Part shown: piece by piece, positions 4,025 through 33,485 of the stretch
Layout of the letters: every line of letters begins with the position of its first letter
How positions within the stretch are numbered: position 1 is the first letter of the stretch
NCBI GenBank assembly: GCA_028691955.1
Contig: JAQUYH010000002.1
Location: 13,012-77,011, forward strand
Reading direction: 5' to 3'
Origin: Bacilli bacterium
Lineage (GTDB): Bacteria > Bacillota_I > Bacilli_A > RF39 > UBA660
Length of the DNA stretch: 64,000 nt
The notes under the pieces: model-generated
Seen by the model: only the letters and a program-made list of their open reading frames with translations
Database searches by the model: none
What the model was told of the DNA's origin: nothing
Program-made: the position numbers and the translations under genes

Positions 4025-4376
4025 CGTTTTAAGTTTCGAATAAAAATTTCGGCCATTATAACTTTCTATTTAATTAGAGTTAATTATAATAATTTTCTAA
4101 ATATTATCAGTACTTAGAAGAAATTTTTATTAGTGAGTTTTCTTTCTCACACACAATTGTGATTTAGAATTACTTAATAAAGAAATTCTTTTTGAGAATC
4201 ATAAATAAATTACAATATTGTGGAAGAGAAGTCACCCGATTAGAAATTAAAAATATTAACTTCTAATCTTTCATATAAATTTTTGATGAAATCAAATCAC
4301 AAATATCATATCTTTACTAAGTATCTAAAATATAACATATATTTTTTTAAAAATCAATACTTTTCTTTTATTTTCT

Positions 4377-13540: not shown

Positions 13541-14302
13541 TCAATAAATAATCGCTAAAAGTCCATTAAAATCAACATTTAAAAGCAATAATATCAAAGC
13601 ACCTATACATAAAAAAGGTCCAAAAGGTACAATATTTGTTCTCTTAAGTTTTAAAATCATAATAGAAACAGGAAGCCCAATTATAGATCCTAAAAATATA
13701 GAAACGATAGATAGTTGATATCCTAACACTAAGCCAATAACACCCATAAGCTTTATATCTCCACCACCCATAGATTCCCTTTTAAACAAAAAGTCACCAA
13801 TTTTTTTTATCAAAAACATAATAGAGAAAGATATAAATCCATTTAAAACAGCAAATAAAGTAGATGATACCCCACCTTTAAAAAATAAAATTACTAAAAA
13901 AGCTATTGTAAAAAATATTAAAACCTGATCTGGAATTATCATAGTTTGATAATCACTTATAAAGACAATTACAGACATTGATATAAATAATAATACCAAA
14001 ACTAACTGTATAGAAAATCCAAACAATAAAAATGATAAAGCAAATAAAGATCCTGTTATAAATTCAAATATAGTATAAAACCAAGATATCTTTTGATTAC
14101 AATTTTTACACCTTCCACCTTGAATAAGAAAAGATAAAATTGGAATTAATTCCAAAGGAGTTAAAACATGATTACAGTTTGGGCAATGTGATCTAGGTTT
14201 AACAATTGATTGATTTCTAGGAAGCCTATACCCAACCACATTAAAGAATGACCCAAGTAAAGTGCCTAGCACAAAAAAATATATTGCAAATAAAGTAGTC
14301 AT
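13541..14302 (-). CDS. prepilin peptidase (A24 family, PilD/ComC)
   Basis: 253 aa. N-terminal tetra-Cys Zn finger (CPNCNH...CKNCNQ), polytopic, catalytic GGGDIKLMG motif. Confidence 0.85.
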   Translation of the reverse strand: MTTLFAIYFFVLGTLLGSFFNVVGYRLPRNQSIVKPRSHCPNCNHVLTPLELIPILSFLIQGGRCKNCNQKISWFYTIFEFITGSLFALSFLLFGFSIQLVLVLLFISMSVIVFISDYQTMIIPDQVLIFFTIAFLVILFFKGGVSSTLFAVLNGFISFSIMFLIKKIGDFLFKRESMGGGDIKLMGVIGLVLGYQLSIVSIFLGSIIGLPVSIMILKLKRTNIVPFGPFLCIGALILLLLNVDFNGLLAIIY

Positions 14303-14313
14303 TTTTACTCCTT

Positions 14314-16299
14314 CTATCCTTGAACTGATTGATATAAATTAAACATTGGTATAATTATAGCAAGTACTATGCCACCAACAATAACTGTTAAAAAGATAAT
14401 TAAAATAGGTTCTACGAATGTTTTAATTCTAGTTACTGAGTTTTTATGTAACTCCTGATAATAAGAAGAAACCTTAGCCATCATTTCTGGTAATTGTCCC
14501 GTTTTCTCCCCAGTTACCAACATCTCATAAGCGGGCATTGGGAAAGCCCAATGACCTTTAAATGACATTGATAACTTATCGCCATGAGCTAAATTAGATA
14601 TTGTATCTAATATAATCATCTTATAAATCTCATTATTCGTAACCTTGGTAAGAATTTCCATACTTTCAGTAATAAAAACATTGTGCTTTAATAATGAAGC
14701 AAAAGTTTTAGTAAACATCGTTACTTCATTATATATAATTACATTTCCAAAAACAGGCATATGCATTAAAAGCCACTGTACAATAGTTTTAAATGATTTT
14801 ATATGCGAATAGAAATATTTAAGGGTTACAATAACAGCTAATATAATCATTAACACTTTAAGAGCATTGGCCTTCAAAAAATCACTTACAGACATTACAA
14901 ATAAAGTAAATTCTGGAATCTTAGAATTATCCATTGAAGAATATATGTTTGTAAACTGAGGTACTACATACATTAAAACAAAAACAATAACACCTGTTGC
15001 TAAAACTAAAATAATAGCTGGATAAGTCATAGCTGTAATCATTTGCCTTCTCGTTTTATCAGCTTCAGTATAATAGTCCGCCATATCATCCAATGCTTCT
15101 GGAAGCTCGCCTGTCATTTCTGCTGTCTTAACCATATTAATTAATAATCTAGGAAAAGCCATCCCTTGTTTTGACATAGCTTCACTAAAATTTTCACCCA
15201 TAGTTAGTTCATATATAACATTTCTAATAATTTGTTTATACTTATTTTGTTTGTATTGCCTAGATAAAATTCTAAGTGATTCAATTAAAGTAATACCAGA
15301 CTTAATATATGTAGATAACTGAGTCAAAAAGAAAATTAAATCTTTTGTTTTAAATTTTGTTCTTATACTCTTACTTCTACCATATTTGAATTTTATCCAC
15401 GGTGAAGTTTTAATACTATAAACTTCATAATTTTCACTCAATAAGAAAGAGTGAACTTCAACTTTTGAAAAAGCTTCATAATGACCTTTTATAATTTGCC
15501 CATCAACATTTTTAACTACATATTCATAAGGTATCTTTTCAACACTCTTTACAGCATCTTCTCCTTCAAAATTAATTAGCAATTCCTGATGTTCCATTTC
15601 ATAACGGTTACGTTTATTTTTTACAAAAGTTAAATTGTCATACCACTTGTTAATATTTTCCTTGAAATTTTTAGGCAAATTATTTAATGCCCTAATGCCC
15701 TGTTGAATATAATCATTAAAAGTATGTTTTTCTATTTTAACATTCTTATTTATAAATTCATTTTTCTCTTTTAATTTTCTTTTTTCTTCCCTTTGTTTTC
15801 TTCTTTTTTCGTCTAACTGAGCCTTCTCAATTACTTTTCTCTCAAGTAATTGCTCTTTTTTTAATTTTCTAGCAATTTTTCTCTTTATATTTGCAACAGT
15901 TCTTTCTTCTCTATTTTTAGAACGTCTCTCTCTTGCTACTTTTGTTTTATCCCTTATTATTACAAAAGGAAAATATAAACCAAATATAAAATACTTTAAT
16001 ATTTTATATAAAGAAAAGCTAAGTAGTATAAATGAATTTAAAAAATACAAAACTGTTTTATCTAAAGAATTATATAATTTCATCGAAGAATAAACAATTC
16101 CATATAAGCAATATTTAAAAGTACTATAAATTGATTTATAAACTAAATAAGAGACAAACATAAAACCAATAAAAAAGTATTTAAAAGCACTATAAAAAGA
16201 TTCACTTAAAAATTTTACAGTCTCAAAAATTCCTAAAAAGAACCATCTTATAACAAACAAAGGCGCTGCAATTATAGACAAAATAACATTTTTTTTCAA
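14314..16299 (-). CDS. type II secretion/type IV pilus platform protein (GspF/PilC/ComGB family) with an unusual ~150-aa N-terminal extension (3-4 TM helices plus a KR/E-rich region)
   Basis: 661 aa. Two GspF domains at residues ~310-661 (DLIFFLTQLSTYIKSGITLIESL; EALDDMADYY...TYPAIILVLATGVIV). Residues 1-150 are hydrophobic helices followed by KVARERRSKNREERTVANIKRKIARKLKKEQLLERK... The SD-to-ATG spacing is long, so the true start is uncertain. Confidence 0.75.
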   Translation of the reverse strand: MKKNVILSIIAAPLFVIRWFFLGIFETVKFLSESFYSAFKYFFIGFMFVSYLVYKSIYSTFKYCLYGIVYSSMKLYNSLDKTVLYFLNSFILLSFSLYKILKYFIFGLYFPFVIIRDKTKVARERRSKNREERTVANIKRKIARKLKKEQLLERKVIEKAQLDEKRRKQREEKRKLKEKNEFINKNVKIEKHTFNDYIQQGIRALNNLPKNFKENINKWYDNLTFVKNKRNRYEMEHQELLINFEGEDAVKSVEKIPYEYVVKNVDGQIIKGHYEAFSKVEVHSFLLSENYEVYSIKTSPWIKFKYGRSKSIRTKFKTKDLIFFLTQLSTYIKSGITLIESLRILSRQYKQNKYKQIIRNVIYELTMGENFSEAMSKQGMAFPRLLINMVKTAEMTGELPEALDDMADYYTEADKTRRQMITAMTYPAIILVLATGVIVFVLMYVVPQFTNIYSSMDNSKIPEFTLFVMSVSDFLKANALKVLMIILAVIVTLKYFYSHIKSFKTIVQWLLMHMPVFGNVIIYNEVTMFTKTFASLLKHNVFITESMEILTKVTNNEIYKMIILDTISNLAHGDKLSMSFKGHWAFPMPAYEMLVTGEKTGQLPEMMAKVSSYYQELHKNSVTRIKTFVEPILIIFLTVIVGGIVLAIIIPMFNLYQSVQG

Positions 16300-19884: not shown

Positions 19885-19961
<77 letters not shown>

Positions 19962-20055
19962 AAATTCAAGAACAAAATGATTATACAACACTTTAAAACC
20001 TAATTCAAGCCTTTTTTAACTTTTTATATAAAAAAATCAACATATAATATGTCGA

Positions 20056-20814
20056 TTAAAAATTCCAAATGTCCTCATCTGTTTCAGTTTCTTCTAAGTT
20101 TTCTGCTTTTTTAGCATCCTTCATAGAACTTTCTGTCCATATATCAGTAGGTTCTATTTTTAAATCTTCTTTCTTTTCTTCTATTTCTTTTGTCTCTTCT
20201 TTTTTTTCATCTTTAACAGATTCTAAAATTTCATTATTAGATGATTTTTTACCTTCATCTTCTAATTTTGGATTATTATCTTCTTTTTGATCCTCTAGCT
20301 TATTTTCCTCAGCATTATCTAAAGCTTCAGATTTTGTTTCTTTTACATCATCTTTTTTTTCTTCTTTATTTTTTTTCTTATCCTTTTTATTAAATTTATC
20401 TTCTTTAACATTGTCTGCAGTGCTGTTTTCCTTATTTTCTAAAGTTTCTGTTTCTTGAACATTTTCTTTTTTATCTTCTTTGAAATCGCCCAAAGGAACG
20501 CTTAATTCAGCTAATTCTGCATCACTAAGTTCAGGAGTATTATTTGTAGAAACTTCTTCTTTTTTAATAGTTTCTAGAGCCGGAGACTCTTCAACTTTTT
20601 TCTCTAAATCTTTATAAACAACATCATTTAATTTAATATTTTTAAGATTAACTACTTCTTCCTTTTTTTCTTCTTTAACTGGACTTATGTTTACTTTTCT
20701 TTCTGTCTTTTTATGACCAAAATCGGTTTTTTCTGCTATATAACCGATAATTATCATAATAACAAAAATAATTCCTAACATAGTCCACAAAATATTTTGT
20801 TCTATGAAAATCAC
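20056..20814 (-). CDS. membrane-anchored, highly charged K/E/D-rich low-complexity protein of unknown function
   Basis: 252 aa. One N-terminal TM helix (ILWTMLGIIFVIMIIIGYIA), then about 200 aa of KE-rich low complexity ending in the acidic tail ETETDEDIWNF. The opposite-strand ORF 20069..20290 is a translation artefact of the low complexity. Confidence 0.5.
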   Translation of the reverse strand: MIFIEQNILWTMLGIIFVIMIIIGYIAEKTDFGHKKTERKVNISPVKEEKKEEVVNLKNIKLNDVVYKDLEKKVEESPALETIKKEEVSTNNTPELSDAELAELSVPLGDFKEDKKENVQETETLENKENSTADNVKEDKFNKKDKKKNKEEKKDDVKETKSEALDNAEENKLEDQKEDNNPKLEDEGKKSSNNEILESVKDEKKEETKEIEEKKEDLKIEPTDIWTESSMKDAKKAENLEETETDEDIWNF

Positions 20815-20890: not shown

Positions 20891-21397
20891 TTACATTTCC
20901 AGATAATCTTCACCTTTAAAAGGTTCTGTTTTTAATAATTCCTTATAATTTTGTTGTCTTAAAACTTCATATACCATTATAGCTACACAGTTAGATAAAT
21001 TCAGAGCTCTAACATTACTAGTCATTGGAATTCTAAGACATCTATCCAAATAATTTTTTAATATTTCTTTAGGAGTACCTGTACTTTCTTTACCAAAAAT
21101 TAAATAAATATTTCTGTTAGTATCACTATAATCAAAACTAGTATGTGGTTTTTTACCATATCTAGTTAGAAAATAAAAATCACCATCATTCTTACTTAAA
21201 AATTCGTCGAAATTTTCATAAATTTTATATTCACATTTATCAATATAATTAACGCCAGATCTTTTTATATTTTTTTCATCTAATGAAAATCCTAAAGGTT
21301 TTATTAAGTGTAAATGAGTCCCTGTTGCTACACAAGTACGCATTATATTTCCAGTATTCTGTGGTATTTCAGGCTCAAATAAAACTACATTTATCAA
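20891..21397 (-). CDS. trmL: tRNA (cytidine/uridine-2'-O-)-methyltransferase TrmL (SpoU/TrmH class)
   Basis: 168 aa SPOUT fold, matching the CspR/YibK family (VVLFEPEIPQNTGNIMRTC). Confidence 0.8.
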   Translation of the reverse strand: MINVVLFEPEIPQNTGNIMRTCVATGTHLHLIKPLGFSLDEKNIKRSGVNYIDKCEYKIYENFDEFLSKNDGDFYFLTRYGKKPHTSFDYSDTNRNIYLIFGKESTGTPKEILKNYLDRCLRIPMTSNVRALNLSNCVAIMVYEVLRQQNYKELLKTEPFKGEDYLEM

Positions 21398-21415: not shown

Positions 21416-22414
21416 TTAAAAATCACTTTCCACTACTCTGATTTCTTCTATTGTTACATCAGGTAGCTCAATATTTTCTTCCTCACATATTTGCTTAAAT
21501 TTTTCTTTAAATAATTTTAACTCTTTTATTATGGTATCAGGATAAATTCTTTTACTCAACTTAAGTGCATTATAAAAGTCTAATATAGTAACGTAATCTC
21601 TATTATTATATACAGCTTGAGAAAACGCTTGAGCTAAAACAGAAAAAGCAACATCAGGGTACATTGCAGCTAATCCATAAACTCTTTTAAAAGGTCCTGT
21701 TGCTGAAACTATAGAGGTAATAAGCATTTCAGTCACAAAGTTAGTATATTTTATATAAGCTTTTGTTTTATATTCAAATCTGGGGATACTTTTCATTAAA
21801 ATTTCGACAGTTGTTTCCTGAGTAGGTTCTTGTACCTCAATTCTCTCAAAACGCCTTAAAAACGCTCTATCACGAACAATATAAGCTTCATATTCTTCAG
21901 TAGTTGTAGCTCCAATAGCCTTCATATCACCTCTATCCAAAGCAGGTTTAAGTATGTTAGCTAAATCCATTGGGCCACTACCTTTACCACCAATTAAAGT
22001 ATGAACCTCATCAATAAATAATATTGTTCTTGTAATATCTTTAAGTTCTCTCATCAAAACACTAATAACCATCTCTTCCGTATTATCAATAGTCACTTTG
22101 CCTAATAAAGAAGTTGAGTTAATTTTTATAATCTTATAGCCTTTTAAAGCTTCAGGAACCTCATTTCTTTGAATCAAATAAGCAAGACCTTCAACTATAG
22201 CTGTTTTACCAATACCAGCTTTACCAGTTAACAAAGCAGATTTATCAGGAGTAAGTAAAACAAGCATTAATTTTTTAATTTCATCATCACGAGCTATAGC
22301 TGGATTAGTTACATAAGTTCTACCAACTAATTCCTCACCATACATCTTAATAACACTAAATTTTTCTGGTTTTTCTTCTTTCTCAAAATCCACTACTTCA
22401 ATATCATCAGCCAT
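21416..22414 (-). CDS. stand-alone Clp/Hsp100 D1-type AAA+ ATPase (single nucleotide-binding domain) with a unique C-terminal domain
   Basis: 332 aa. LLTGKAGIGKTAIVEGLAYLIQRNEVPEALKG...ILFIDEVHTLIGG...LKPALDRGDMKAIGATTTEEYEAYIVRDRAFLRRFERIEVQEP closely matches the ClpB/ClpC D1 domain. There is no N-domain, no middle domain and no D2. Confidence 0.7.
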   Translation of the reverse strand: MADDIEVVDFEKEEKPEKFSVIKMYGEELVGRTYVTNPAIARDDEIKKLMLVLLTPDKSALLTGKAGIGKTAIVEGLAYLIQRNEVPEALKGYKIIKINSTSLLGKVTIDNTEEMVISVLMRELKDITRTILFIDEVHTLIGGKGSGPMDLANILKPALDRGDMKAIGATTTEEYEAYIVRDRAFLRRFERIEVQEPTQETTVEILMKSIPRFEYKTKAYIKYTNFVTEMLITSIVSATGPFKRVYGLAAMYPDVAFSVLAQAFSQAVYNNRDYVTILDFYNALKLSKRIYPDTIIKELKLFKEKFKQICEEENIELPDVTIEEIRVVESDF

Positions 22415-22417
22415 ATT

Positions 22418-22840
22418 TTACTCCTTTATATATCCCCATTGTATCATTTTATCTTTAACGAAAGAATAATCTCTTGAACCAACTATCCTTGATAATGTAT
22501 TCTCTTCCACACCATCTACAACATTAATAGTAGTTGGCGTTCCTGCATAATAAAAATAAGATTTCAGATTATTTATTTCATTTTCATCAGTTATTTTAGA
22601 TATATCAATATATTTAACATCTATACCATATTTTTTATTAATTTCTTCTAAAGTCAATTTATATTCATCACAATGTGTACAATTAGATGAACCAATCATT
22701 AACATAAAAGATTCTTTATTATTTAACATATTAATTAATTCATCATAACTTACTTCTGTATAACCAACACCAGAATTTTTACAACCCGATATAATAAATA
22801 CAGAAAATAAGATCAATAAAAATTGTATTGCTTTCTTCAT
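22418..22840 (-). CDS. thioredoxin-fold lipoprotein (CxxC; bacteriocin-transport-accessory-protein-like)
   Basis: 140 aa. Lipobox FIISGC, then a CTHC redox motif in a Trx-like context. Stop lies 4 nt from the AAA+ gene start. Confidence 0.6.
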   Translation of the reverse strand: MKKAIQFLLILFSVFIISGCKNSGVGYTEVSYDELINMLNNKESFMLMIGSSNCTHCDEYKLTLEEINKKYGIDVKYIDISKITDENEINNLKSYFYYAGTPTTINVVDGVEENTLSRIVGSRDYSFVKDKMIQWGYIKE

Positions 22841-22901
22841 TTGCTACCTTCTTATCATAATAATTATACATTGTATCAAAACAAAAGTAAAGAAAAAATC
22901 T

Positions 22902-24716
22902 TTACTTATCATCATCCATACTAAGTACAGAAAGGAAGGCTTCTTGTGGTATTTCCACACTGCCAACCATCTTCATACGTTTCTTTCCTTCTTTTTGTTT
23001 TTCTAATAATTTTCTTTTTCTAGAAACATCCCCACCATAGCACTTAGCTAAAACATTTTTACGCATTGCCTTTATATCAGCTCTAGATATTACTTTATTG
23101 CCTATACACGCTTGAATTGGAACTTCAAATTGTTGCCTTGGAATTAATTCTCTTAAATTATCCACAACAGACTTTCCTCTTTTATAAGCAAAATCTTTAT
23201 GAACAATAGTACTTAACGCATCAACTGCTTCACCGTTTAGTAAAATATCCATTTTAACTAAGTCACTAGTTTTATAGCCTATCATCTCATAATCAAAAGA
23301 AGCATATCCTTTGGTAAAAGATTTTAATTTATCAAAAAAATCATAAACAATTTCTGAAAGAGGTATTTCATAATGAATATTAACTCTTGTTTTATCAATA
23401 TATTCCATAGAAACATAGTTGCCTCTTTTATCTTGGCATAGCTTCATGATATCCCCTATATATTCATTAGGAGAAAATATATTAGTTTTAATATATGGCT
23501 CTTCAATAAAATTAATAAGTGTTCTATCAGGTAATTTAGAAGGACTATCAATATCTATCACACTACCGTTTGTCATATTAACTTTATAAATAACAGAAGG
23601 AGATGTTGCAATCAAATCTACATTAAATTCTCTTTCAATTCTTTCTTCAATTATTTCCATGTGTAGAAGGCCTAAAAAGCCACACCTAAATCCAAATCCC
23701 AAAGCTTTAGATGTTTCTGGTTCAAACTCTAAAGAAGCGTCATTTAATTTCAATTTTTCTAAAGCTTCACGAAGCTCTGGATATTTAGAAGACTCCACAG
23801 GATAAATTCCCGTAAATACCATTGGTTTCATTGGCTTATAACCAGGTAATGAAATAGTTGAAGGATTATCTATACTTGTTATAGTATCTCCCACTTTAAC
23901 ATCACTAATGCTTTTTATATTAGCCGATATATATCCTACCTCACCAGCAACCAATTCCTTTTTCTTACTTTCTTTTGGCGTATGGACACCAAGTTCTGTA
24001 ATATCATAAGTAGCTCCTGTTGCCATCATTTTAACAACTTCACCAAGATTAACTTTTCCATTAATAACTCTAGTAAGTATCACTATTCCTCTATATGGGT
24101 CATAAAAGCTATCAAATATCAAAGCTTGTAAAGGTTTATCTACGTCCCCCTTAGGAGCAGGAATTTTTTCTATAATAGCATCAACTAATTCTTTAACCCC
24201 AAGCCCTGTTTTGGCACTTGTAAGTAAAATTTCTTTTTCATCAAATCCAAAAGTATCTATTAATTCTTTTTTTACTTTTTCTACATCAGCATTAGGTAAA
24301 TCTATTTTATTAATCACTGGAATTATTGTTAAGTTACTATCTAACGCTAAATAAAGGTTGGCTAAAGTTTGTGCCTCAATTCCTTGTGCAGCATCAACTA
24401 CTAATATAGCGCCTTCACAAGCAGCTAAACTTCTACTAACTTCATATGTAAAATCAACATGCCCTGGAGTGTCTATTAAATGTAATATATATTCTTCATT
24501 ATTATATTTATATTTTAACTGAACAGCATTTAATTTAATAGTAATACCGCGTTCTCTTTCGATATCCATATTATCAAGTAGCTGGTCTTTTTTTTCTCTT
24601 TCACTAATAGCTCCTGTTAATTCAAGAATTCTATCAGCTAAAGTACTTTTACCATGATCTATATGAGCAATTATTGAAAAATTTCTTATGTTTTTGTTTA
24701 TCATATTCTTCACCAC
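22902..24716 (-). CDS. lepA: elongation factor 4 (LepA)
   Basis: 604 aa. GTPase G1-G5 motifs ([18 protein letters not shown]) and the LepA C-terminal domain. Confidence 0.95.
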
Positions 24717-24775: not shown

Positions 24776-25567
24776 TTACCTTAATAAAAATAGCATAGAT
24801 ACTACTGTTCCAATAGTTACTACCATGGTTACTATTGAAAGTAGTATTATATTTATAAAGCCATCATCAAATGTAATCGTAGAATGACCATTAGATTTAA
24901 CTTTTACTTTTCCTCTTTCACTACCACCATCTACGATTTGACTATTAGCTTGTTGTTCTCTTTTAGCATAATCTAACATTGTTTGTAGTTCAGCTTTAGA
25001 CTTACCAAAATCAGAGCCAGGAGCGGGGAAATTACTAGTTTGTTCTAATAACTGTTCTACTTGCATCATTTGATCACTTTCACGATTCCCAGTAGGTAAC
25101 ACATCCGCATTATTGACCTCAGGCGGCATAGCAAAATTTCTAGTGATGTCAACTAAAGTATTCTCCGCTTCATTTTGACCATTAAACCATTCAGCAAAAG
25201 AATTATAAGATGTTTCCAATACAATATCATCATTAAACGGAACATTTAAATTTCCTAACACTTGTTTTGCTTCTTTTGCTTCTTTACTAATTATTCCTTT
25301 TAAAGCAAATCTAGTATCTATTTCATCAATATGATCTAAGTCTTCATCACGAAAAGGTCTAATAATAGATATACGATTAGTATTAGCTAAAGTATTTAGC
25401 TTATCATTAGCTTTATTCTCTAAAACAAAAGTAATGTGTGGATAACCTATACTTTTTGGTACAACCAAATAAAAAGTTCCATTAACTAAATAAACATTAC
25501 TTGTAACTGTTTCAAATAAATTAGTATAAACACTTTTATTTTCTAAAACATCAGCCATAATTATCAC
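24776..25567 (-). CDS. hypothetical protein with C-terminal TM anchor
   Basis: 263 aa. The only hydrophobic segment is the C-terminal IILLSIVTMVVTIGTVVSMLFLL. No recognisable family. Confidence 0.4.
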   Translation of the reverse strand: MIIMADVLENKSVYTNLFETVTSNVYLVNGTFYLVVPKSIGYPHITFVLENKANDKLNTLANTNRISIIRPFRDEDLDHIDEIDTRFALKGIISKEAKEAKQVLGNLNVPFNDDIVLETSYNSFAEWFNGQNEAENTLVDITRNFAMPPEVNNADVLPTGNRESDQMMQVEQLLEQTSNFPAPGSDFGKSKAELQTMLDYAKREQQANSQIVDGGSERGKVKVKSNGHSTITFDDGFINIILLSIVTMVVTIGTVVSMLFLLR

Positions 25568-25568
25568 C

Positions 25569-26012
25569 CTATTCCTGAGTTATAGTTCCAGCACCTCTAG
25601 AATATTTAACTATAGTACCTTCACTGTCATAATTTATTTCAATGGACATAACATATCCATCTTCAGAACTTTCCTTAACAACCACTGCATTATTTTGATC
25701 TGCTTCATCAAGATAATATCCAGCATCTGCCAAATCAATTATATAAAGAGATGCATCTTCTAAAGTAACATCATCATATGTTAACCAAATATATTTGCCT
25801 GACGAGTTTATTCCTTCTTCTACATTAGTAATATTTCTTTCGCCAATAAGAGAATAAATTGAAGGAAACGTATCAGATTCTATTGTAATAACTGAATCTG
25901 TATTAGATATCTTAACCTTATTATTATTCATTAACATATTTGTAACAAACAACCCTACTGCAACTAGTGCTAAAACTATAGCAACCTTAAAACCTTTACT
26001 CATATCATTCAC
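25569..26012 (-). CDS. hypothetical secreted or N-terminally anchored protein
   Basis: 147 aa. N-terminal signal/TM helix (VAIVLALVAVGLFV), acidic remainder. Start lies 2 nt from the upstream gene stop. Confidence 0.4.
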   Translation of the reverse strand: MNDMSKGFKVAIVLALVAVGLFVTNMLMNNNKVKISNTDSVITIESDTFPSIYSLIGERNITNVEEGINSSGKYIWLTYDDVTLEDASLYIIDLADAGYYLDEADQNNAVVVKESSEDGYVMSIEINYDSEGTIVKYSRGAGTITQE

Positions 26013-26238: not shown

Positions 26239-26325
26239 TGGTGCTCGTGAAGAGAATCGAACTCTTACATCAAAGATACACGATTTTGAGTCGTGCGCGT
26301 CTACCAGTTCCGCCACACGAGCAAC
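26239..26325 (-). tRNA. tRNA-Leu (anticodon CAA), long variable arm
   Basis: Reverse complement GTTGCTCGTGTGGCGGAACTGGTAGACGCGCACGACTCAAAATCGTGTATCTTTGATGTAAGAGTTCGATTCTCTTCACGAGCACCA, 87 nt. Confidence 0.85.
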
Positions 26326-31550: not shown

Positions 31551-32429
31551 CTAAATAAAGAGATTCAAAAACTCTATCAAAAGACCTACAATAACACCTG
31601 ATAAATAAACAATAGATATAATTGTTAAATTGTCTTTCATATTTTTATTAACTCTAAATAAAATCATTAAAGCAACGCCACTTCCAGTTAAAAGGCCAGC
31701 CATCGCACTTCCAAAAGTAATAGCTCCATTAATGTACAATTCTGTTATAACAACAGACGCCGCACAGTTAGGAATAAGACCAATTAAGCTTGATATAAAA
31801 GGCCCAAGTAAACTTCCTCTTAAAAAGATATCAGCTATTTTATCTTCACCCAAATAATAAATAACAGTATTTAAAACAAAAGAAACTAATACAATAAATC
31901 CCAAAATATTAAAAGTATGCTTCAAACTAGATAAAAATATATTATTATCTTCATCACAATGACAGTGCTCGGAAGCACAAAACTCTTCAACATTACTCTT
32001 TAAAGATTTTCTTTTTCTAAAAATAAAATCAACAATAAAGCCAATTACAATACCTACTATAACTTTTAAAACAATTATATTAAATATAACACTGCCACTA
32101 GCTCCACTAGTAAGTAGTATTGGTAACATCTCATCCGATGTAGATAAATAAACAGAAACTAAAGTACCAATTGAAATAATTCTTGCTGCATATAAATTAG
32201 TAGAAGCTGCTGAAAAACCGCATTGTGGGAAAGCCCCTAGCACACCACCTATTACTGGCCCTAGTTTTCCTGATTTTTGAATTAAACTTTTACTTTTATT
32301 ACTAAGTTTATGTTCAAAATATTCCATAACAAAAAACGCAAAAAATAAAAAAGGTAATATTTTAATTCCATCTATTAAAGTATCATAAATAACATCTACC
32401 ATAAAAACTCCTCCACAGTATTTTAACAT
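31551..32429 (-). CDS. polytopic membrane protein of unknown function
   Basis: 292 aa, about 8 TM helices, internal Cys cluster (CASEHCHCDED) in a cytoplasmic loop. No confident family assignment. Confidence 0.4.
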   Translation of the reverse strand: MLKYCGGVFMVDVIYDTLIDGIKILPFLFFAFFVMEYFEHKLSNKSKSLIQKSGKLGPVIGGVLGAFPQCGFSAASTNLYAARIISIGTLVSVYLSTSDEMLPILLTSGASGSVIFNIIVLKVIVGIVIGFIVDFIFRKRKSLKSNVEEFCASEHCHCDEDNNIFLSSLKHTFNILGFIVLVSFVLNTVIYYLGEDKIADIFLRGSLLGPFISSLIGLIPNCAASVVITELYINGAITFGSAMAGLLTGSGVALMILFRVNKNMKDNLTIISIVYLSGVIVGLLIEFLNLFI

Positions 32430-32449: not shown

Positions 32450-32779
32450 TTATTTAACAAATTCTTTTAATTCATCCAATCGCATAAAACCAATAGCTTG
32501 CTTATCAACTTTTCCGTCCTTAAATAATATAACAGTTGGAATAGAGGTTACATTATATTCATAAGCAATAGGCTCCTTATCAACATCAACCTTTAATATA
32601 GTTATATCAGTATCTTTTTCCAAATTTTCTAAAACTGGTCCTAACATTTTACAAGGTCCGCACCAATCAGCATAAAAATCTACTAAAACCTTACTATTTT
32701 TTTTAATCTCTTCATTAAATTCACTTGTATTAACATGTTTTATCATATAAATTCCTCCTTCATGATTAAATTTTAACAC
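32450..32779 (-). CDS. trxA: thioredoxin
   Basis: 109 aa. WCGPCK active site. Confidence 0.9.
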   Translation of the reverse strand: MLKFNHEGGIYMIKHVNTSEFNEEIKKNSKVLVDFYADWCGPCKMLGPVLENLEKDTDITILKVDVDKEPIAYEYNVTSIPTVILFKDGKVDKQAIGFMRLDELKEFVK

Positions 32780-32840: not shown

Positions 32841-33485
32841 ATGGATATAGAAAATATAATTAAAGTGTGGGAAAAAATAGATTTAAAACATCAAAATATG
32901 ATAAAAAAAGCTTTAACAATAAAAATATATAAAGCAAATGATATTATATATCAAAGTGGATTTGAATGTTTAGGACTTACCATTATAAAAAAAGGCACTT
33001 TAAGAGCTTATATGAATTCATATAACGGAAAAGAAATAACTTTATACAAACTATCTGATAATGATATATGTTTGTTTTCAAATAGTTGCTCAATAAAAGA
33101 TTTAACTCTAAATATTAATATCATGACTATTACAGATACCGAAGTATATATTATTCCAACTAACATTTACAATATTTTAATGGGTGAATCAAATGAATTT
33201 GCTAACTACATAAATAACATTTTAACCAATAGATTTAAAGAAGCAATGTGGACATTTGAACAAACCATTTTTTATAATTTAGAATCTAGAATAGCAACCT
33301 ACCTATTAGAACAAAATAAAAATGTAATTAATATTACTCATGAAAAAATAGCTAACGAATTAGGAAGCTCCAGAGAAGTAATAAGTAGAATACTTAAAAA
33401 AATGGAAACAAACAACATAATCAAATTAGATAGAAATAATATAACAATATTAAATAAAAATAAATTACAAGATCTAATACAATAA
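32841..33485 (+). CDS. Crp/Fnr family transcriptional regulator
   Basis: 214 aa. N-terminal cNMP-binding-like beta-roll and a C-terminal HTH (IANELGSSREVISRILKKME). Confidence 0.85.
   Translation: MDIENIIKVWEKIDLKHQNMIKKALTIKIYKANDIIYQSGFECLGLTIIKKGTLRAYMNSYNGKEITLYKLSDNDICLFSNSCSIKDLTLNINIMTITDTEVYIIPTNIYNILMGESNEFANYINNILTNRFKEAMWTFEQTIFYNLESRIATYLLEQNKNVINITHEKIANELGSSREVISRILKKMETNNIIKLDRNNITILNKNKLQDLIQ

Follow-up and report, generated by a model that had tools for sequence, protein, structure and literature searches.

A stand-alone Clp D1-type AAA+ ATPase encoded beside a thioredoxin-fold lipoprotein in RF39 bacteria

Introduction

The Clp/Hsp100 machines are two-ring unfoldases, and the precedents for a lone Hsp100 module working as a single ring, human CLPB/Skd3 and the torsins, are eukaryotic single-ring AAA+ proteins that come from the second module (D2, of the HCLR clade) and carry other accessory domains; the torsins, moreover, rely on partner proteins and lack an aromatic pore loop. 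We know of no described counterpart of these proteins made of the first module (D1) only. Here we analyse such a protein, a bacterial and D1-derived AAA+ ATPase of 332 amino acids, which like the torsins is without the aromatic pore loop, and whose gene lies on the minus strand of a stretch of 64,000 nucleotides (hereafter the window) of a Bacilli bacterium of the lineage RF39 (assembly GCA_028691955.1, contig JAQUYH010000002.1, positions 13,012 to 77,011). A preliminary description, made from the letters of the window, had proposed it as a stand-alone ClpB-D1-like ATPase coupled to a thioredoxin-fold lipoprotein.

Concerning the lipoprotein, the closest described group is that of PedC, BrcD and BdbA, of which PedC is a putative thiol-disulfide oxidoreductase that improves the potency of pediocin (PMC4919988). 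Full-text literature searches for a D1-only Hsp100, for a truncated ClpB homologue in Mollicutes, and for PedC together with AAA found nothing relevant. As for the bacteria themselves, RF39 is an uncultured lineage with reduced genomes in which a peptidoglycan wall is mostly predicted to be retained, and the genome paper on RF39 and RFN20 mentions neither Clp nor thioredoxin.

A complete D1 module and nothing else

The 332-amino-acid protein is one complete Clp/Hsp100 D1 module, with the nucleotide-binding subdomain and the helical lid, and nothing else. It matches the ClpA model TIGR02639 (E 2.5e-48, residues 16–227 on model positions 162–376) and the ClpB model TIGR03346 (E 7e-48), reaches 42.4 bits with the AAA family PF00004 (gathering cut-off 21.2), and in a sequence search of the PDB it finds the D1 of ClpB, ClpC1, ClpC, ClpA and Hsp104 at E 1e-39 to 1e-33 (E 5e-39 for ClpB 4d2q). 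An AlphaFold model built from 49 relatives, with a predicted local distance difference test score (pLDDT) of 85.5, is superposed by Foldseek on the D1 of ClpB, ClpC, ClpC1 and ClpA over 270–300 columns at E about 1e-19, an example being the superposition on the D1-only chain 8yd1_E of ClpC1 (272 columns, root-mean-square deviation 3.0 Å, target template modelling score 0.81). The proposal of a stand-alone D1 protein is thus borne out. The parts of the protein referred to below are the following:

21416–22414, minus strand: D1-only AAA+ ATPase, 332 amino acids, second gene of the unit
22202–22225, minus strand: Walker A GKAGIGKT, residues 64–71; K70 invariant in 156 short-form and 15 long-form relatives
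22073–22105, minus strand: degenerate pore-1 loop LGKVTIDNTEE, residues 104–114, aligned with ClpB AGAKYRGEFEE, with Ile in place of Tyr
22001–22024, minus strand: Walker B ILFIDEVH, residues 131–138; D135 and E136 invariant
21839–21913, minus strand: sensor-1 GATT (T170/T171) and arginine fingers R187/R188 (RRFERI), invariant in the 156 short-form sequences
21500–21826, minus strand: D1 small helical (lid) subdomain, residues ~197–305, without an M-domain insertion, from the AlphaFold model and Foldseek
21419–21499, minus strand: clade-specific acidic C-terminal extension, residues 306–332, ...IELPDVTIEEIRVVESDF, predicted to be disordered

With the D1 of ClpA, ClpB, ClpC and ClpC1 the ATPase shares the fold of the large and small subdomains at 30–40% identity, and with those of ClpA, ClpB and ClpC the Walker A and B motifs, the sensor-1 GATT, the double arginine finger RRF and the 'NPxIxRDxEI' before Walker A. 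Seven residues (K70, D135, E136, T170, T171, R187 and R188) do not vary in the 156 short-form relatives. The preliminary description had spoken of an almost motif-for-motif match, and the motifs that it quoted are indeed present (GKAGIGKT, ILFIDEVH, LKPALDRG at residues 155–162 and RRFERI at 187–192), but the pore-1 tyrosine has been lost. In other respects also the protein is unlike ClpA, ClpB and ClpC, as it has no amino-terminal (N-) domain, no middle (M-) domain and no D2, and it has an acidic C-terminal peptide of its own.

These absences, likewise put forward in the preliminary description, stand. There is no Pfam match to Clp_N in the ATPase, whose first 15 residues are disordered and whose residues 16–35 align with the linker that precedes D1; there is no M-domain, the total length being too short for an insertion of 50–120 amino acids, and in this the lid is ClpA-like; and the protein has a single module only, while the 64-kb window, whose longest open reading frame (ORF) has 661 amino acids, contains neither a D2-type motif nor another Clp-like P-loop. 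Having no D2, it has no ClpP-docking loop; the D1 modules of ClpA and ClpC carry none either. It has no signal peptide or transmembrane segment. Its scores are far under the NCBIfam equivalog cut-offs in all cases (ClpA 164.9 against 993 bits, ClpB 163.6 against 1232, TssH 154 against 885). Since it fails the tests for a class-1 Clp protein in D2, N- and M-domains, pore tyrosine and cut-off scores, we treat it as a separate AAA+ subfamily. An identity with SpoVK, CbbX and similar small AAA+ families was rejected, as these are absent from its NCBIfam matches. An origin in phages, plasmids or defence systems was also considered and rejected: PADLOC gives only weak generic AAA matches, the PHROGs match is a full-length Clp family of 764 amino acids, and the only tblastn matches in phages and plasmids are full-length Clp genes of less than 41% identity.

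What had been described as a unique C-terminal tail of about 100 amino acids turns out to be, for the most part, the ordinary D1 lid. Residues ~197–305 correspond to the D1 small helical subdomain because the model superposes there on ClpB, ClpC and ClpA, and its helices (199–217, 225–238, 254–269, 277–285 and 292–305) form a contiguous five-helix bundle, which in our reading keeps a degenerate version of the Clp signature 'R-Y-I...L-P-D-K-A-I-D-L' as KRVY...YPDVAFSVL. Only residues ~306–332 are specific to the clade. Over this extension the pLDDT falls to 71 and then to 46, and its consensus is ...LPxVT[IL][DE]E...E[ED]N[YF]: 'LP.V' occurs in the last 25 residues of 78 of the 81 clade members, while all of 76 distant ones are without it, and 52 of the 81 have an aromatic residue among the final three. 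Acidic C-terminal peptides that end in an aromatic residue are a common type of docking tail, and this peptide could be a docking motif.

The pore-1 column is that of the tyrosine with which the Clp machines grip their substrates. In the window's clade (n = 80) it holds I in 33 sequences, V in 23, L in 11, Y in 8, M in 3 and K in 2, which makes 70 of the 80 aliphatic (I, V, L or M). In the distant short forms, from clades 47–50% identical, it holds S (28), I (14), V (11), T (7), E (7) or some further residue, none of them aromatic. Twelve of 15 longer relatives of about 520 amino acids, described below, keep Y or F at this position.

The family and its constraint

The gene is under strong constraint, with a ratio of non-synonymous to synonymous substitution rates (dN/dS) of 0.08–0.09 at a dS of about 1 with respect to its two closest relatives. 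Among the matches listed in a word-index search there are 120 relatives at 67–100% identity, of 283–352 amino acids, all but one of at least 309. A wider scan, made on one genome per species with patterns taken from the family-specific lid, confirmed at least 556 stretches in species-representative genomes, and the best 80 of these are all from metagenome-assembled genomes (MAGs) of the gut labelled Bacilli, Firmicutes, Tenericutes and similar. A protein of 315–365 amino acids is conserved in full length across hundreds of gut MAG species, and single clusters occur on 218–232 contigs. The relatives that bear names, Ca. Faecisoma and Ca. Fimihabitans, belong to the GTDB order RF39, family CAG-822, and proteins identical to both the ATPase and the lipoprotein of the window are recorded from a 'Bacilli bacterium' MAG as 'AAA family ATPase' and 'thioredoxin family protein'.

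A sister family of about 520 amino acids (P0152, P0156, P0164, P0168 and P0190; loci L090 and L091) exists in MAGs of the same kind; it is 38–42% identical to the ATPase throughout the D1 module, lid included, and like the ATPase it is without M-domain and D2. Unlike the ATPase, it has kept the pore-1 tyrosine or phenylalanine and has an additional N-terminal domain of about 200 amino acids. We considered whether this domain could be a cryptic Clp_N and rejected the idea, as it has no Pfam match and the best PDB profile match has an E of 0.59, to an unrelated protein. Some D1-only relatives, such as P0121 (617 amino acids) and P0127 (965 amino acids), carry in their predicted sequences N- or C-terminal extensions of 300–650 amino acids that are of low complexity and rich in Asn and Ser.

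The gene cluster

All the genes around the ATPase gene are on the minus strand, in a window of 27% G+C, in the order lepA, the 140-amino-acid ORF of the lipoprotein, the 332-amino-acid ORF, trmL, the gene of an acidic membrane protein, tRNA-Arg(TCT) and dnaG:

22902–24716, minus strand: lepA, upstream of the thioredoxin gene
22863–22891, minus strand: promoter-like site TTTACT, 17 nucleotides, TATAAT, in the 61-nucleotide gap from lepA to the thioredoxin gene
22418–22840, minus strand: thioredoxin-fold lipoprotein (PedC/BdbA-like, PF20207), 140 amino acids, with lipobox ISGC, CTHC and cis-Pro loop
22421–22426, minus strand: Shine-Dalgarno sequence AAGGAG of the ATPase gene, within the last codons of the thioredoxin gene
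20891–21397, minus strand: trmL (tRNA wobble 2'-O-methyltransferase), 18 nucleotides downstream of the ATPase gene
20056–20814, minus strand: membrane-anchored acidic low-complexity protein, 252 amino acids, no family assignment
19885–19961, minus strand: tRNA-Arg(TCT), from a tRNA scan, downstream of the unit and before dnaG

The CxxC lipoprotein is encoded just upstream of the ATPase gene and in the same orientation, as had been pointed out, with a spacer of 3 nucleotides between its stop codon TAA (22418–22420) and the ATG of the ATPase gene (22414). The downstream gene is likewise trmL, as proposed: its product matches TIGR00185 over the whole model (positions 1–154 of 154) with 191.5 bits, above the equivalog cut-off of 190.6. 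The 252-amino-acid protein has one N-terminal membrane segment followed by a long tail rich in Glu, Lys and Asp; no Pfam family was found for it, it matches the X243 family hidden Markov model (HMM) at E 6.5e-19, and its gene is syntenic with trmL in most relatives, where cdaA is usually the next one after it.

Transcription of the unit probably starts from the site at 22863–22891, to judge by its hexamers, which score 10 of 12 as a promoter, and probably includes trmL. The closest relatives, L008 and L009, have the same TTCTTTAC...TGTATAAT arrangement, and in 54 of 64 relatives a run of T is followed by a −10-like TATAAT hexamer about 28 nucleotides before the start codon of the thioredoxin gene, the run of T being the terminator tail of the preceding gene. 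The promoter evidence is no more than suggestive, since such matches are no commoner in this AT-rich DNA than in shuffled sequence. No terminator-like site was found between 19700 and 23100, and the Rfam scan of the window gave no regulatory RNA at the locus. The upstream regions of 64 relatives contain one match to the CtsR operator and none to CIRCE, and membership of the heat-shock regulon was rejected on this ground.

In the genomes related to the window the cluster was examined at the 80 best species-level loci, by calling ORFs and by phmmer with the proteins of the window. The order is nearly universal: LysM protein, thioredoxin lipoprotein, ATPase, a protein of 153–191 amino acids, TrmL, acidic membrane protein and CdaA. 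The thioredoxin lipoprotein is upstream of the ATPase gene in 69 of the 80 loci, so that the pairing on which the preliminary description made its proposal depend is conserved within this clade, and the gap between the two genes is from −14 to +17 nucleotides in all but one of these 69 (+46). The window differs from its relatives in its flanks, with lepA instead of LysM upstream and dnaG instead of cdaA downstream, and nevertheless the block of thioredoxin, ATPase, trmL and membrane protein is intact. The pair is kept when the upstream context changes, be it lepA (the window), LysM (most relatives) or a pilin-like giant protein (L172). Where what lies upstream is different, a thioredoxin homologue of 41% identity is once more the gene in front of the ATPase gene. 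DUF5684 was considered as a recurrent partner and discarded, being found only in L172 and L090/L091.

The thiol-protein neighbours

The 140-amino-acid protein has a signal peptide (…FIISGC) with the lipobox ISGC and Cys20, a single CxxC that reads CTHC (Cys54–Cys57), and a conserved cis-Pro loop (T101–P102). Lipobox and single CxxC are kept in all of 69 orthologues, where the latter reads CSHC in 31, CSAC in 11, CQHC in 9, CTHC in 5 and otherwise in the rest. An AlphaFold model (pLDDT 89.5) has the thioredoxin fold, with the CxxC opening helix 1 (55–71), and Foldseek brings up thioredoxins and 1zma, the 'bacteriocin transport accessory protein' of S. pneumoniae (root-mean-square deviation 2.4, 106 columns). 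The match to PedC_BrcD (TIGR01295) has an E of 1.9e-10 and 40.8 bits against an equivalog cut-off of 120, and PF20207 is on record for P0362, a protein identical to that of the window. The likeness to the PedC/BrcD/BdbA type (TIGR01295, PF20207, 1zma) is therefore one of thioredoxin fold, CxxC, cis-Pro loop and export signal; unlike those of PedC and BrcD, the gene of the lipoprotein belongs to a housekeeping operon, and around it there are no genes for bacteriocins, immunity or ABC transporters. By analogy, its C-x-H-C site resembles the oxidising sites of the DsbA type, and CTHC is identical in PDB 7pqf (DsbA/DsbL).

In 67 of the 80 loci of relatives (L009–L087; e.g., 6113–6625 of L002) the protein of 153–191 amino acids is encoded between the ATPase gene and trmL. 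It matches PF20207 (DUF6568/PedC-like) with 59.5 bits, none of the 67 proteins has a CxxC, all 67 have a transmembrane-like segment, and 44 of the 67 have [IV]P.[KR]NY ahead of it. From these traits it is predicted to be a redox-dead, membrane-anchored thioredoxin-like protein with a conserved cytoplasmic peptide (IPxKNY). A full-text literature search for a description of DUF6568 found nothing relevant.

Other features of the window

At about 5 kb from the unit there are pilus or competence-pseudopilus genes, in which a type IV prepilin peptidase (Peptidase_A24; 13541–14302, minus strand) adjoins a PilC/GspF-like platform protein of 661 amino acids (14314–16299, minus strand), whose first ~255 residues are outside any PilC/GspF model; in Firmicutes, the disulfide oxidoreductases that work outside the cytoplasm typically have pilins among their substrates. 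At 32450–32779, minus strand, a cytoplasmic thioredoxin of the canonical type (WCGPC) is encoded beside an ArsP_2-type permease gene (31551–32429, minus strand) and a divergent Crp-family regulator gene (32841–33485, plus strand). Two ORFs upstream of lepA, 24776–25567 (263 amino acids) and 25569–26012 (147 amino acids), both on the minus strand, have no Pfam or NCBIfam family; the former ends in a membrane segment and the latter begins with one.

The tRNA-Arg(TCT) gene (19885–19961) has a promoter-like site of its own at 20008–19980. A tRNA-Leu(CAA), which is a known type of TrmL substrate, lies at 26239–26322, minus strand, 5 kb upstream of trmL, and this proximity is probably coincidental. 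At 4097–4190, minus strand, between recG-like and ffh-like genes, there is the cis-regulatory motif 'PGK RNA' of Rfam (59.9 bits, gathering cut-off 50.8). Finally, 62 of the 66 ORFs of at least 120 amino acids are on the minus strand and the GC skew is strongly negative throughout, with a sole break at 42–44 kb in the form of a plus-strand gene, all of which is consistent with a single replichore with a strong leading-strand gene bias.

Discussion

The reading that we favour, with middling confidence, is that the ATPase is active, forms a ring, does not thread its substrates, and is facultatively linked to thiol proteins of the envelope. The unit starts past the terminator of the preceding gene, with the promoter-like site, the exported CxxC lipoprotein and then the ATPase, and in most relatives it runs on through the DUF6568 protein, trmL and the membrane protein. 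Because arginine fingers make sense only between subunits, their conservation suggests that the ATPase would assemble into a ring and hydrolyse ATP; and because the aromatic pore loop, the N-domain, the M-domain and D2 are all absent, it would remodel or hold a narrow set of clients, with no processive threading of the kind known from ClpA, ClpB and ClpC. More speculatively, it may take part, acting from within the cytoplasm, in the biogenesis or the quality control of those exported or membrane cysteine proteins that are handled by thioredoxin-like proteins.

The link with exported thiol proteins is proposed because the adjacency of thioredoxin and AAA genes recurs, with different flanks, in a second clade whose ATPases are less than 50% identical to that of the window. 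Scanning metagenomes for the distant short forms added 80 loci, whose neighbours were assigned with family HMMs. In one sub-clade of these (L124, L127, L131, L140 and L148), where the ATPases have 47–49% identity to that of the window, a CSSC thioredoxin lipoprotein is encoded 42 nucleotides upstream in L131 and L148 and within 2 kb in the others. L140 also has a CSHC membrane-anchored thioredoxin, 29% identical to that of the window, 44 nucleotides upstream. The flanks are otherwise unrelated to those of the window (a DAP-dehydrogenase-like gene and an ABC transporter), and the cluster of this sub-clade (e.g., 1475–4284 of L140) includes a rhodanese lipoprotein of 125 amino acids on the opposite strand and a lipoprotein of 227–233 amino acids that appears, in our reading, to carry a rhodanese-like CGGGG loop. 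Minus-strand 'thioredoxin' matches beside the AAA gene in L123, L124, L127, L128 and L140 were discarded, as they are rhodanese lipoproteins matched through their signal peptides.

The link is called facultative because most other clades have no thioredoxin neighbour, and here the points that weigh against this reading begin. Of 75 loci in the clade of the window, 65 have a CxxC thioredoxin in the 2.5 kb upstream, against only 5 of 70 in the distant short-form clades (47–50% identical) and neither of 2 long-form loci, so that the conservation of the pairing, firm among close relatives, does not extend to the family. Most distant loci have neither thioredoxin nor DUF6568 nor trmL as neighbours, the genes there being varied housekeeping ones: that of P0360, a very abundant human-gut member of 315 amino acids and 49% identity for which the collection has 424 blocks, is flanked by czcD, a gene for cation efflux, and by glmS, and that of the 520-amino-acid form adjoins genes for Ham1, DUF5684 and signal peptidase, with no thioredoxin. 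Even in the window's own clade about 10 of the 80 loci are without the upstream thioredoxin lipoprotein, and the DUF6568 gene is missing in the window and in six relatives. Since it has neither a signal peptide nor a membrane segment, the ATPase cannot reach the thioredoxin domain outside the cell directly, and the cytoplasmic peptide of the DUF6568 protein would be the sole part that it could touch. Regarding the mechanism, we infer ring formation, ATPase activity and the absence of threading alike, tyrosine is still at the pore position in those 8 of 80 clade members, and an aliphatic residue, the I, V or L of this clade, could also contact a substrate.

It is quite possible, on the other hand, that the operon is incidental, and that the ATPase is a housekeeping or stress chaperone of the reduced genomes of RF39, perhaps replacing lost two-ring Clp ATPases, without any link to thiols. 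These genomes are small and densely packed, for which reason unrelated genes often share operons, and trmL, downstream of the ATPase gene in nearly all of the 80 loci either directly or past the DUF6568 gene, accompanies it no less constantly than the thioredoxin gene does. The scarcity of thioredoxin neighbours in the other clades, with their varied housekeeping genes, and the separate loss of the thioredoxin or the DUF6568 gene in parts of the window's clade would be expected in this case, and elsewhere more distant PedC-like thioredoxins stand by themselves. Besides, the dN/dS of the thioredoxin gene is 0.36–0.40, about four times that of the ATPase gene, and with such a difference the two do not look tightly co-evolving. 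Against an incidental operon there are (i) the adjacency in the second clade, with other flanks and with another thioredoxin paralogue, either the CSSC lipoprotein or the CSHC membrane form; (ii) the further exported sulfur proteins beside the pair of that clade; (iii) the persistence of the pair as its upstream context shifts through lepA, LysM and the pilin-like giant protein; and (iv) the lack of CtsR or CIRCE operators, which speaks against a classical heat-shock chaperone, a constitutive one being still compatible.

A bolder version of the link, which we consider unlikely, is that the ATPase, the CxxC lipoprotein and the DUF6568 protein make up one trans-membrane machine that couples cytoplasmic ATP to disulfide handling in the envelope. 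The ring would dock on the IPxKNY tail of the DUF6568 protein or on the precursors of exported cysteine proteins, and ATP would control, load or recycle an extracytoplasmic disulfide system in bacteria without the DsbB/VKOR-quinone or CcdA routes. If true, this would be a new coupling of ATP to envelope thiols and the first function described for a lone Clp D1 module.

Also unlikely is that the D1-only protein works as an accessory subunit, which would cap, seed or mix into the ring of another AAA+ protein, or act as a switch that recruits clients. Candidate hosts would be FtsH, Lon, one of the Clp ATPases or the 520-amino-acid paralogue, in which the pore loop is intact. The presence of that paralogue, with N-domain and pore Tyr/Phe, in the same kind of MAGs would suit such a role, as would the retention in the short form of the arginine fingers and not of the pore tyrosine, and the clade-specific acidic C-terminal peptide with its aromatic end; however, no gene of a partner ATPase or protease is a conserved neighbour, and D1 modules in general have no ClpP-docking loop.

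That the ATPase would work with TrmL or with the translation apparatus we hold to be very unlikely. The idea has in its favour the constancy of trmL after the AAA gene in the 80 loci of the clade, and the abundance of translation genes nearby (lepA, dnaG, rpoD, prfA and der surround the locus, with tRNA-Leu(CAA) and tRNA-Arg close by), but near the ATPases of distant clades trmL occurs in only 1 of 84 loci, and 2 kb off, and in most relatives the DUF6568 gene is inserted between the ATPase gene and trmL. We know of no RNA-related activity of Clp D1 modules.

The supposition that it is a decaying remnant of clpB, clpC or clpA, a pseudogene or a fragment, for which only the architecture speaks (D1 without N-domain, M-domain and D2), and which the preliminary description had itself named as what would undo its proposal, is ruled out for practical purposes by the full-length conservation over hundreds of species, the low dN/dS, the invariant catalytic residues, the gene's own Shine-Dalgarno sequence and start codon, the intact and unrelated flanking ORFs, and the absence of any D2-like sequence or clpB remainder in the window.

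Returning to the ATPase itself, RF39 bacteria are common in human and animal guts, and in them an intact D1-only ATPase is kept under strong constraint, which is still fully equipped to burn ATP and no longer has the residue for pulling polypeptide. Its function would reveal of what a lone D1 ring is capable and, at the same time, something of how these minimal bacteria of the gut organise their proteostasis. Should the link through the operon be real, it would show how a cytoplasmic ATPase ties to exported thiol-redox proteins; and if it is incidental, there is still a well-delimited new AAA+ subfamily, which is labelled in the databases as 'AAA family ATPase' or, wrongly, as 'ClpA'.

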